Shown one piece after another: positions 12,001 to 15,000 of a stretch of DNA of 50,823 bases (positions are counted from its first letter, which is position 1; each line of letters opens with the position of its first letter). Source of the stretch: a virus (lineage: Duplodnaviria; Heunggongvirae; Uroviricota; Caudoviricetes); IMG/VR virus record IMGVR_UViG_2721755725_000006, one strand, 5' to 3'. The position numbers are program-made.

Positions 12001-15000
12001 GCAAAGATTTCACTCTGACGATACAGTGGCAGATGTTCGCAGTATTTTCCCGTTAACACGCGGGCAAGTAATCCGGGGCCCGCGATACCACGCTCTATCG
12101 GGCGGGACGGCGCCGGTGCTTCAACAATACAGTCACATTTTGTACAGGCTTTTTTTACCCGTTCTGTGCGGATCACTTTCAGGGCACTGCTCACCAGTTC
12201 CAGCTGTTCAGCGCTGACTTCTCCCAGATAATCCAGCTCACCGCCACACTCCGGGCAACAGCTTTCTTCTGGCTCCAGGCGGTGTATTTCACGGGGAAGG
12301 TGTGCCGGTAACGGACGACGATGGCGCGACTGTCGCAACTGGCGGGGAACCTGAGGATCGTCTTCCCGCCCACTGTAACGATCGCTGTCCTGTTCACGTT
12401 GTTTCAGCAGAGCCTCAGCCAGTTCAACTTCACGACGCAGTTTTTCAGAACGGGTACCGAACAGCATCCGGCGCAGTTTTTCTATCTGAGCCCGCAGATG
12501 TTCTATTTCCCGTTCATCTTCTTCGATCTTTTCTTCGGCACGTGTCAGTGCAGAGCGCAGGAAGGCTTCCGTCTCTTCAACCAGACTCAGTTGCTGGTCT
12601 TTCTGACGGAGGGCTTCAGCCTGCTCAGAGAGCAACCTTTCCAGCTCTGCGATGCGAATGAGGTATTTCTGACTCATGACCGTTTTTATAATGCGGTCAG
12701 GAGTTTTTTACAACATTGTCAGTGAGTTACGGCTGGATGTTTTTGGCTGACGCCAGTCCAGCTTATCGAGGAGCATTGCCAGTTGCGAGCGGGTAATGGA
12801 TACCTTGCCGTCACGTACCGCAGGCCAGATAAACTGGCCTTCCTCCAGGCGTTTGGTGAACAGGCACAGACCATCAGCATCAGCCCAAAGAATTTTGACG
12901 GTGTCACCCCGTCGGCCACGGAAGATAAACAGGTGACCGGAGAAGGGATTATCATTCAGCACATGTTGTACCTGTTCTCCCAGTCCGTTGAAGGATTTAC
13001 GCATATCGGTAACGCCGGCAACGAGCCAGATACGGGTACCTGATGGGAGTGAGATCATCTTCCCCTCCCGGTCAGTTCACGGATCAACACCGTGAGCAGC
13101 TCTGGCGATGGATTTTCCAGCGTCATGTTACCGTGACGGAATTCCACCTTGCAGGAACTGGCACTGACTCTGGTCTGAGTGGAAGTGGATAAAGACGGCG
13201 CAATGGCCGCCACAGGTTCTTTCTGCTCATCCGGCGTTATTTCTACAGGTAATAATTCAACGCCAGTGTCAGAAGAGGTCGTTACCGGAAGACGCCGCGA
13301 AACACGCCCTTCGTTCTGCCAGAGCCTGAGCCATTTGAAAATAACATTATCATTGACGCCATTTTCACGTGCAATCTGTGCAACACAAGCTCCAGGTTGT
13401 GATGCCAGTTCCACCATACGAAGTTTGAATTCATTCGAATAGTTTTTACGAGGTTCTTTTCGCCAGTCCTGTAATTCCATACTTAGATGTCCGTCTATAT
13501 CAGATGGGCGTCTAAGTTACCAATTCTCGTCTGATGGCTACATACGGCGGTCAGTTTACGCTTACCGATGTTTGGAATCTTCAAAAAGAAAACCCGCAGA
13601 GCGGCAGCGGAAATTAAAAAGTTTGAGAAACGCGATCTGGCACAGGCGGTGATTAACGCTGCATACCTGGTGGCCTATGCAGATGGTGAATGCGAGGCAT
13701 CCGAGAAAGCGAAGATCGAACAGGTCTTACGTAATCAGCCTGCGTTGTCTGCGTTTACCTCGGAAATTAATGCGATTAGCGCAACTATTATCGGTCAGCT
13801 GGATACCAATTTTAAAATTGGTCGTCGTGCCGCGTTACGTGAGATCGAGGATGTGAAACACGATACGCGTGAAGCGGAAGATGTGCTGGATGTGGCGGTG
13901 GCCATTGCGGAGGCAGACGGCGAAATTGAGCCGGAAGAGCGCAAGGTGCTGGAAGAGATTGCCGGTGTTCTGGGTCTTCGTCTGGAGAATCACCTGTGAC
14001 GGTAAAACTGCGCCTGACTGTGGCTGCACTCCTGCTGTTTCTGGTGGTGATGGTGGATTTCACCAGCAGAATCATGTCGGTGCTGGCGGATGGGGTGCTG
14101 GTCTGCGGCATTATGGTATTGCTGTGGCCGGTGATAAAAAGAAACAGCCTGCATAATGCTTGATTTTTTTGTTTGCTGTTTATTAAAAACACTTCTGCAT
14201 GGTGAATCCCCCTGTGCGGAGGGGCGATCAGCAACCAGGTATATGGGATAATCGCGGATTCAGGTGCTGATACTGAATTCACCGGGAGGCACCCGGCACC
14301 ATGCTTTGCCACAAAAGTGTTGTTTCTGTTTTTCTCAAACTATCATCGTTATCCCTTTATTTCCGGCTGCGCATGGCGTGGCCTTTTTTTTACGACCAGC
14401 CACTGGCAGATGGCCATCCTGTAATTTGATTCCGGTTCCGGCTTTTTAACTCTGTTCCTGTACACGGGAGAAATTCGATGTCGATTAAACATTATGATGT
14501 TGTCAGGGCGGCGTCGCCGTCAGACCTTGCGGAAAAGCTGACACACAAACTGAAAGAGGGCTGGCAGCCGTTTGGTAGTCCGGTGGCCATAACCCCTTAT
14601 ACTCTGATGCAGGCCATTGCGGCGGAAGGTGATGTCACCACACCTGTGTTGGTGAAGCCGTCGGATGGAGAAGGCACAGTAATCAGCGCCACCAGAGACC
14701 CGGAGTATTACTTTGTTGTGGTTCTGGCGGGGCAGTCAAACAGCATGGCATATGGTGAAGGCCTTCCGCTGCCGGAGACATATGACCGTCCGGACCCGCG
14801 CATTAAGCAGCTGGCGCGTCGCAGTACGGTGACACCGGGCGGTGTCGCCTGTAAATATAACGACATCATTCCGGCGGACCATTGTCTGCATGATGTGCAG
14901 GACATGAGCCGCCTTAACCATCCGAAAGCGGACCTGTCAAAGGGGCAGTACGGAACCGTGGGGCAGGGGCTGCATATCGCCAAAAAATTGCTGCCGTTTA

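Follow-up and report, generated by a model that had tools for sequence, protein, structure and literature searches.

The locus described here raises the question of what a phage carries when its late region is built like that of a Shiga toxin (Stx) converting phage and the slot of the stx genes is filled by something else, and whether such a cargo can be expressed from where it stands. The DNA analyzed, called the window throughout, is the whole 50,823-nucleotide Caudoviricetes record IMGVR_UViG_2721755725_000006 from IMG/VR, and the cargo consists of two overlapping open reading frames (ORFs), which are identified below as tciA and tciB. The pair and its occupation of the stx slot are already known, and it is a catalogued, widespread module. 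The explanation favored here as a whole, to which we give about an even chance, is that TciA and TciB (TciAB) form a membrane device used in infection, that their genes sit in the stx slot of the late operon, and that the copy in the window has been weakened by an insertion sequence (IS).

Identity and distribution of the tciAB pair

Both ORFs were found where a preliminary description of this DNA had placed them (Table 1), with the GTG start of tciB sharing the letters GTGA with the TGA stop of tciA. The 143-aa protein had been described as TerB-like, and several searches agree on this. Its residues 26-138 match the Pfam family TerB (PF05099) with 60.2 bits (cut-off 24.4, E = 2.9e-16), positions 1-143 of 143 match PHROG 632, labeled "tellurite resistance" (E = 1.7e-69), and residues 14-137 align with the solved TerB of Klebsiella (PDB 2JXU, E = 4.4e-8). 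The AlphaFold2 model, built on 23 homologues, is all-helical with a predicted local distance difference test (pLDDT) score of 88, and Foldseek placed the TerB-like structure 2h5n on top (probability 1.00, template modeling score 0.55-0.62), followed by 2ou3 (probability 0.91), with weak E-values (0.01-0.5); this check of the fold did not refute the assignment. The 55-aa protein matches the Pfam family DUF3927 (PF13064) with 60.4 bits (cut-off 25, E = 1.7e-16) and, end to end, PHROG 1470, labeled "TciB-like" (E = 1.8e-29). The 143-aa ORF is TciA, a full-length TerB homologue, and the 55-aa ORF is TciB, which together make up a phage pair that already has a name.

TciA carries two acidic motifs of the form A-D-G-x5-E (D39/G40/E46 and D117/G118/E124) that are invariant or at least 90% conserved among the 23 homologues, and its N-terminus is basic and conserved (MFGxFKKK). 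A putative metal-binding role is attributed to this duplicated acidic motif of TerB domains. In TciB, two hydrophobic stretches (approximately residues 7-20 and 26-44) lie on either side of a short DFTSR turn, with basic residues at both termini, and residues D21 and D32 are nearly invariant (conservation of at least 90% across 28 diverse sequences of the family). The two hydrophobic segments and the translational coupling had been anticipated and are borne out. The GTG start of tciB is supported because the N-terminus lines up with those of homologues started by ATG, and the pairing energy of its Shine-Dalgarno sequence is -6.4 kcal/mol. The ratio of nonsynonymous to synonymous substitution rates (dN/dS), calculated on unsaturated pairs only, is 0.04-0.05 for tciA and 0.27-0.33 for tciB, which indicates purifying selection on both ORFs. 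The short ORF is also conserved across lambdoid, P1, N4-like, and jumbo phages, and it can be regarded as a real gene. A class II holin or antiholin identity was considered for TciB, as the two hydrophobic segments fit it, but the nanS-p gene separates tciB from the holin gene, and the P1, N4-like, and jumbo phage copies are far from the lysis genes and always after tciA, so this candidate was rejected.

TciA was also compared with the known TerB systems. The TerB proteins of plasmid and chromosomal terZABCDE operons (2JXU) resemble it in having a single TerB domain, a similar length, and both acidic motifs. However, membership of a ter operon was rejected: the neighbors are tRNA genes, the IS, the DUF3927 gene, and nanS-p, there are no terC, terD, terE, or terZ genes next to it, and the partner is a 55-aa DUF3927 protein and not the multi-pass TerC. 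A weak profile similarity relates TciA to the N-terminal TerB-like domain of DjlA (NCBIfam DjlA, E = 1e-6, below the cut-off). The idea common to both is a TerB domain at the inner membrane, but DjlA holds anchor, TerB, and J domain in one polypeptide, whereas TciAB would use two proteins and no J domain.

The window region matches, at 100% identity, a prophage found in Escherichia coli O111:H-/O111:H8, for example strain 11128, where the Prokaryotic Genome Annotation Pipeline (PGAP) names the products "tellurite resistance TerB family protein" and "DUF3927 family protein". In JLK-2012 and P1, these two genes are annotated as tciA/tciB, and a 2022 paper (PMC9413875) noted a "tellurite resistance protein in place of stx2d". 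The preliminary description, which spoke of an uncharacterized module that could not be assigned a function, overlooked this named pair. With a coverage of at least 80%, tciAB was present in 803 of 5,426 complete E. coli genomes, at a median of three and up to eight places per genome. TciA homologues were found in 130 phage records, which comprise lambdoid phages, the phage-plasmids P1, D6, and SJ46, Erwinia jumbo phages, and N4-like phages of Escherichia, Salmonella, Vibrio, and Pseudomonas.

A DUF3927 ORF lies directly 3' of tciA, with an overlap or a gap of 0-4 nt, in lambdoid phages, both P1 variants, the N4-like phages Pollock and SP-076, and the Erwinia phage ChrisDB. The same adjacency was observed in genomes of Enterobacterales, Desulfovibrio, and Bilophila, which makes more than 15 independent lineages overall. 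DUF3927 is a small family (118 clusters at 50% identity among 1.84 billion representatives) whose members nearly always stand alone, with approximately 50-60 aa. In some lineages its place is taken by an unrelated coupled ORF, either of 46-50 aa with two segments (loci L016-L018 and L149) or, in Pseudomonas and Paracoccus, a single-segment protein of 67-73 aa. Because unrelated small membrane ORFs replace DUF3927 in this way, the recurring theme is a TerB-domain protein with a small membrane partner.

The closest comparison is the tciA-tciB(-tciC) cassette of P1, which has the same two families in the same order with the start/stop overlap, TciA being 42-51% identical to the P1 alleles and TciB a clear homologue, and which is flanked by tRNA genes as it is here. 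On the other hand, P1 has tciC and the window has none, the P1 cassette lies downstream of the C1-repressed ban promoters whereas this one belongs to a Q-dependent late operon, and in the window an IS stands between the cassette and its leader. Two P1 records (L005 and L014) have very different tciA alleles (nonsynonymous difference pN = 0.48) and nearly identical tciB and tciC genes, which indicates that tciA alone has been replaced between these variants.

Transfer RNA genes adjoin tciAB in unrelated phages (L001, L002, L005/L014, L006, and the window) and lie approximately 0.7 kb away in L019 and L020. Three different tRNA sets precede the pair in lambdoid phages, P1 has Asn and Thr tRNAs upstream and Ile2 downstream, and in the Erwinia jumbo phage the cassette is within a tRNA cluster. 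The linkage is absent in N4-like, Pseudomonas, and Vibrio phages. A functional link between tRNA genes and tciAB was not accepted, and their proximity was treated as a shared hot-spot for cargo.

Degraded copies of the cassette were also detected. In the O104:H4 chromosome near hypT (L004), and in approximately 326 other records, a remnant persists that is made of a tRNA-like stretch, the leader, and the first ~87 nt of tciA. It is widespread in non-EHEC (enterohemorrhagic E. coli) strains, and PGAP names it a "DUF3927 domain-containing" pseudogene. This pseudogene was rejected as a variant architecture, as it is a decayed remnant of the same cassette. Moreover, the poly-A run GGTAAAAAAGCC in tciA codons 6-9 has one additional A in 38 of the approximately 116 leader-carrying IMG/VR loci (e.g. 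L022, L024, L027), which leaves a TciA of 16 aa. This could be due to prophage decay, a slippage-prone tract, or a sequencing error.

The stx slot and the insertion at the tciA start codon

The backbone that had been likened to that of Stx-converting phages is present: the Q-like gene, the terminator-like hairpin, the tRNA trio, the NanS-p-like esterase gene, and, downstream, the holin, endolysin, and Rz ORFs. The tRNA trio shares ~93% identity with the ileZ-argN-argO genes that 933W and other Stx2 phages carry. The terminator-like hairpin behind it recurs in Stx2 phages, whose annotation gives it as a terminator preceding stx. Stx2 phages share positions 10603-10906 with the window, homology to 933W stops at 10906, and Stx-phage homology resumes at approximately 14178-14183. 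In 933W, stx2A and stx2B sit between exactly those two borders, and the STnc100-like element, located after stxB in both 933W and Shigella phage 75/02, marks the right one. Judged from this flanking homology, which agrees with the position proposed before, tciAB occupies the stx2AB slot, an exchangeable site of the late operon with the tRNA genes on one side and nanS-p on the other. The stxAB moron of 933W has the same place, after ileZ-argN-argO and the terminator and before the STnc100-like element and nanS-p. The cargo is unrelated, and tciAB brings with it a ~145-nt structured leader, of which the sequence upstream of stx2A in 933W shows only a weak 66-nt match to the model (23.8 bits). 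In Stx phages, matches to the anti-sRNA (small RNA) families AsxR/AgvB follow the STnc100-like element on the opposite strand; in the window they are below the gathering score.

The preliminary description had overlooked an element of the IS66 family that lies between the tRNA genes and tciA. Its identity is clear from the tnpA-tnpB-tnpC genes, the terminal inverted repeats (GTAAGCGT..., beginning GTAAGCG), and an 8-bp target-site duplication, CGATGTTT. The element has inserted at the start codon of tciA and has cut the gene off from its Shine-Dalgarno sequence and leader. When the IS and one duplicate are removed in silico, the window becomes collinear with phage Evi (10603 to 14502) and JLK-2012, and many O157, O145, and O111 EHEC genomes contain the reconstructed junction with 100% identity. 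The uninterrupted junction occurs in 790 genomes in all and the allele with the IS in 45 complete genomes, all those listed being O111 or O111-like.

As a consequence of the duplication, the left ATG now opens a 10-codon ORF (MFVSVNGAPY), and the native Shine-Dalgarno sequence AAAGGAA (11015-11021; -5.6 kcal/mol), which is 2.5 kb upstream of tciA, serves this ORF. The ATG of tciA is preceded by the end of the IS, without a Shine-Dalgarno sequence, and the value calculated there (-2.4 kcal/mol) is typical of random sequence. A consensus promoter scan gave no + strand site at 10860-11030 or at the right end of the IS, and tciA in the window would be reachable only by transcription through 2.5 kb of IS. 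Because the Shine-Dalgarno sequence and leader of tciA now lie beyond the IS, this copy is probably poorly translated or silent, and the earlier suggestion that the pair is expressed on induction becomes doubtful for it. As a point against a silent copy, the Q-modified polymerase might read through the IS, and tciB retains its own Shine-Dalgarno sequence.

This insertion also bears on the rival explanation that survives best, namely that the pair is a decaying, non-functional remnant in this prophage, a serious possibility to which we give rather less than an even chance. Besides the loss of the Shine-Dalgarno sequence and leader, it is favored by a second IS, of the IS3 family, in the lysis region of the same prophage and by another, uninterrupted tciA copy elsewhere in the genome of the O111 strain 11128, near position 1983536 of NC_013364. 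Nevertheless, tciB keeps its Shine-Dalgarno sequence, neither coding sequence is interrupted or frameshifted, and TciA has the same protein sequence as in phage Evi (100% identity), and the last two facts argue that the insertion is recent.

Table 1. Coordinates of the features of the window discussed in the text
Feature	Position	Strand	Remarks
Q-like late antiterminator gene	8743..9309	+	Pfam DUF1133 E = 3.7e-105, Phage_antitermQ E = 6e-8
Winged-helix-like ORF	9533..9730		65 aa
AraC-family regulator gene	9865..10578	+	YdeO/GadX-like, NCBIfam E = 5.7e-31, below cut-off
tRNA trio CAU (ileZ-like), Arg-UCG, Arg-UCU	10607..10858	+	ARAGORN and Rfam tRNA
Terminator-like hairpin (10871-10890) and T-run	10871..10898	+	Terminator scan
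Native 5' leader of tciA, ~145-nt RNA motif	10884..11030	+	Covariance model R1, single match in the window, 153.7 bits
Target-site duplication, left copy CGATGTTT	11026..11033		Holds copy of the tciA ATG (11028-11030)
IS66-family insertion sequence (ISEc47-like), 2,532 bp	11034..13565	-	ORFs, ends, PGAP names in identical genomes
IS66 genes	tnpC 11064..12677, tnpB 12708..13058, tnpA 13055..13480	-	
Target-site duplication, right copy CGATGTTT	13566..13573		Holds the tciA ATG at 13568
tciA	13568..13999	+	143 aa, ATG start; cytoplasmic TerB-domain protein; coding sequence intact
tciB	13996..14163	+	55 aa, GTG start; DUF3927 membrane protein; own Shine-Dalgarno GGAG upstream
STnc100-like sRNA element	14168..14340	+	Rfam RF02076, 104.7 bits; starts 5 nt after the tciB stop
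NanS-p-like sialate O-acetylesterase gene	14478..16415	+	Pfam DUF1737, SASA, and DUF6645; 97% identical to Stx-phage gene
Holin gene	17119..17334		
IS3-family element (orfA/orfB)	17566..18779	+	Lysis region
Endolysin gene	19209..19742		
PerC-family regulator gene	20973..21287	+	Name from PGAP annotation of the homologous 11128 region

Other genes of the region are listed in Table 1. The AraC-family regulator gene lies between the Q-like gene and the tRNA genes, and it is possible that its product and that of the winged-helix-like ORF are prophage-encoded regulators of host acid-resistance or virulence genes. The IS3-family element, between the holin and endolysin genes, is called IS1203-like by PGAP in near-identical strains and is missing at that spot in strain 11128. 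The PerC-family regulator gene is downstream of Rz.

The RNA leader upstream of tciA

The sequence that the IS has separated from tciA is a structured leader that ends in the native Shine-Dalgarno sequence and the duplicated ATG. It is conserved even between lineages in which the synonymous sites of tciA are saturated, including the Erwinia jumbo phage. From 5' to 3', the first element is a hairpin (H0), whose stem covaries and whose loop is conserved. The box CCACAGAG-CC-UUUC comes next, followed by a long interrupted helix (B+D), the 3' strand of which stops 4-6 nt short of the Shine-Dalgarno sequence. In addition, a pseudoknot (A) pairs CCACAGAG with CUCUGUGG in the loop of helix D. The G-run in the leader varies from 4 to 12 G among the IMG/VR loci. 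A terminator-like hairpin with a T-run is usually found 5' of the leader.

The proposed structure was evaluated on an alignment of 24 sequences with 31 pairs. Standard pairs fill 92.6% of the cells, vs. 34-46% when the 3' partners are slid, and compensatory changes are present in 22 of the 31 pairs, compared with 7.5 ± 1.9 in shuffled alignments (none of 500 reached 22) and 3-13 in slid ones. These figures have to be read knowing that the structure was derived from the same sequences and that the alignment of the nested stems was fitted to the model. The pseudoknot is absent from that model, and 95% of its cells are paired over seven contiguous pairs, an eighth pair reaching 79%. Earlier and smaller alignments pointed in the same direction. 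A first RNAalifold run on a poor alignment of eight sequences gave a weak result with one covarying pair, and the structure became convincing only with more diverse members; the single-sequence fold of the leader is not better than shuffles (z = -1.1).

The covariance model R1, built from 21 sequences with the pseudoknot left out, also matched sequences outside its training set. These are located directly 5' of the ant gene in 933W (L008, 7206-7357) and Shigella phage 75/02 (L003, 8399-8554), and 5' of a Bro-N gene in locus L016 (4343-4488). A sequence-profile search of the fetched loci showed that the leader precedes two allele types of tciA, genes of the Ant/KilAC, KilA-N, and Bro-N kinds, and ORFs for an HNH endonuclease, a family-2 glycosyltransferase, a tail-tip-like protein, a solute-binding-like secreted protein, and a zinc-ribbon peptide. 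In the IMG/VR contig L262, a second, divergent leader (minus strand, 1149-1296) is found downstream of tciAB, before a 50-aa zinc-ribbon ORF and just 5' of the holin gene, and leader-plus-gene units are therefore stackable in tandem.

A riboswitch or known sRNA was rejected for the leader, as the search against Rfam 15 (E <= 10) returned no + strand match over it in L001, the window, 933W, phage 75/02, L016, L177, or L006. We put it only slightly short of an even chance that the leader is a previously undescribed class of structured cis-acting RNA, a common 5' module that lambdoid phages and some others would use for their moron cassettes. A comparison is offered by the structured processing or regulatory leaders of polycistronic phage mRNAs, for example those with the RNase III sites of T7 and lambda. 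The motif resembles them in its long interrupted helix of ~20 bp just 5' of the Shine-Dalgarno sequence of many genes, and differs in having a 5' hairpin and a pseudoknot and in matching no Rfam family. Regarding its role, it could be an RNase III-type processing and stabilizing signal, or a translational switch that sets the expression of the cargo within the Q-antiterminated late transcript. It may also be a recombination linker by which cassettes, tciAB and stxAB among them, are exchanged.

Possible roles of TciAB

In the favored explanation, TciAB may be a minimal membrane-anchored TerB device used by many types of phage during infection. TciB would anchor TciA on the cytoplasmic face of the inner membrane, so that phages would possess, in two genes, a minimal equivalent of the TerB-TerC pair known from ter operons; an interaction of TerB with the integral membrane protein TerC is reported in PMC11003894, citing Turkovicova 2016. 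The complex would be active during phage growth, buffering or sensing membrane or ion stress, and it could delay a premature loss of membrane potential or limit the damage caused by pore-forming colicins or superinfecting phage. A role in infection, beyond lysogenic conversion, is suggested because TciA homologues are present in strictly virulent N4-like and jumbo phages and because, according to the P1 annotation, the cassette of P1 is located downstream of the C1-repressed ban promoters.

Several observations weigh against this device. The AlphaFold2 model of TciB is a single continuous long helix with no hairpin, and the topology is not settled by the model. No natural fusion of DUF3927 and TerB was found, the few long ORFs (P0124, P0186, P0247, P0289, and P0297) being frameshifted or chimeric predictions. 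TciA occurs without an adjacent TciB in Vibrio phage K481, Pseudomonas phage Cygsa01, and loci L019 and L020, and the divergent TciA proteins that accompany almost the same TciB in P1 argue against a tightly co-adapted interface between the two proteins. Many resident copies are inactivated, which means that the benefit to the lysogen may be small. In the literature, no experiment tying TciA or TciB to a phenotype was found and the names have been given by homology only; tciA, tciB, and tciC of P1 were non-essential in a genome-wide CRISPR interference screen (PMC10695390), and the role was stated to be unknown in the paper on phage Pollock (PMC4319500).

A different possibility is that TciAB is an exclusion module that protects the lysogen, in which the prophage-expressed pair shields the host from superinfecting phages or pore-forming colicins, the phenotypes historically ascribed to plasmid ter operons. 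TciA is a TerB homologue, ter clusters have been tied in the literature to phage inhibition and colicin resistance, the cassette is in a classical moron slot with multiple copies in EHEC, and P1-like elements show a hypervariable tciABC region that is frequently missing altogether (PMC9603915). We nevertheless consider this explanation unlikely. The phenotypes of ter require terC, terD, and further genes, which this locus lacks, the consensus scan gave no + strand promoter-like site in the leader, and many prophage copies are frameshifted or disrupted by an IS. The virulent N4-like and jumbo phages that carry the family have no lysogen to protect, which argues against the purely lysogenic role, in conversion or exclusion, that had been contemplated before. 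The link to phage defense suggested at the same time was not supported either: in a scan with PADLOC-DB v2, no defense model fits either protein, since TciA gave a chance-level match only (PDC-S48, E = 0.0035, 35 residues) and TciB gave none.

A host-takeover pair, in which TciB is a small membrane-active or division-inhibiting peptide that TciA modulates or neutralizes as a regulator would a toxin, is judged still less probable. The very short and hydrophobic TciB, with charged residues inside its hydrophobic region, the tight coupling of the two genes, and the placement behind the ban promoters in P1 would suit it; besides, the P1 annotation mentions cell-division inhibition, and PMC4633105 links the ter operon to filamentation in Yersinia. 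However, the order with tciA first and the much stronger constraint on tciA fail to single out TciB as the effector, and several phages have TciA without TciB. Finally, a role in metal or ion handling, where TciA would bind a divalent cation through its acidic motifs and an oligomeric TciB would offer a path via D21 and D32 for a flux of Mn, Ca, Zn, or protons during infection, is the least probable. The conserved acidic motifs, the two nearly invariant aspartates, and the ties of TerC, the partner of TerB, to zinc and tellurite resistance (PMC12054061) speak for it. Against it, 55 residues are very few for a channel subunit, no transporter-like fold was found, and there are no metal-related neighbor genes.

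With respect to the cargo itself, tciAB is among the commonest cargoes of the lambdoid prophages of EHEC, and as found here it changes little. The IS at the start codon of tciA shows why an annotated gene should not be taken too readily for expressed cargo. The part that most deserves to be followed up is the covarying, pseudoknotted leader, which appears to be undescribed. If it controls the processing or translation of many accessory genes of the late region, including the antirepressor gene of 933W, Stx-type phages would have in it a regulatory element of general use, and it might also explain the exchange of cassettes at the stx slot.

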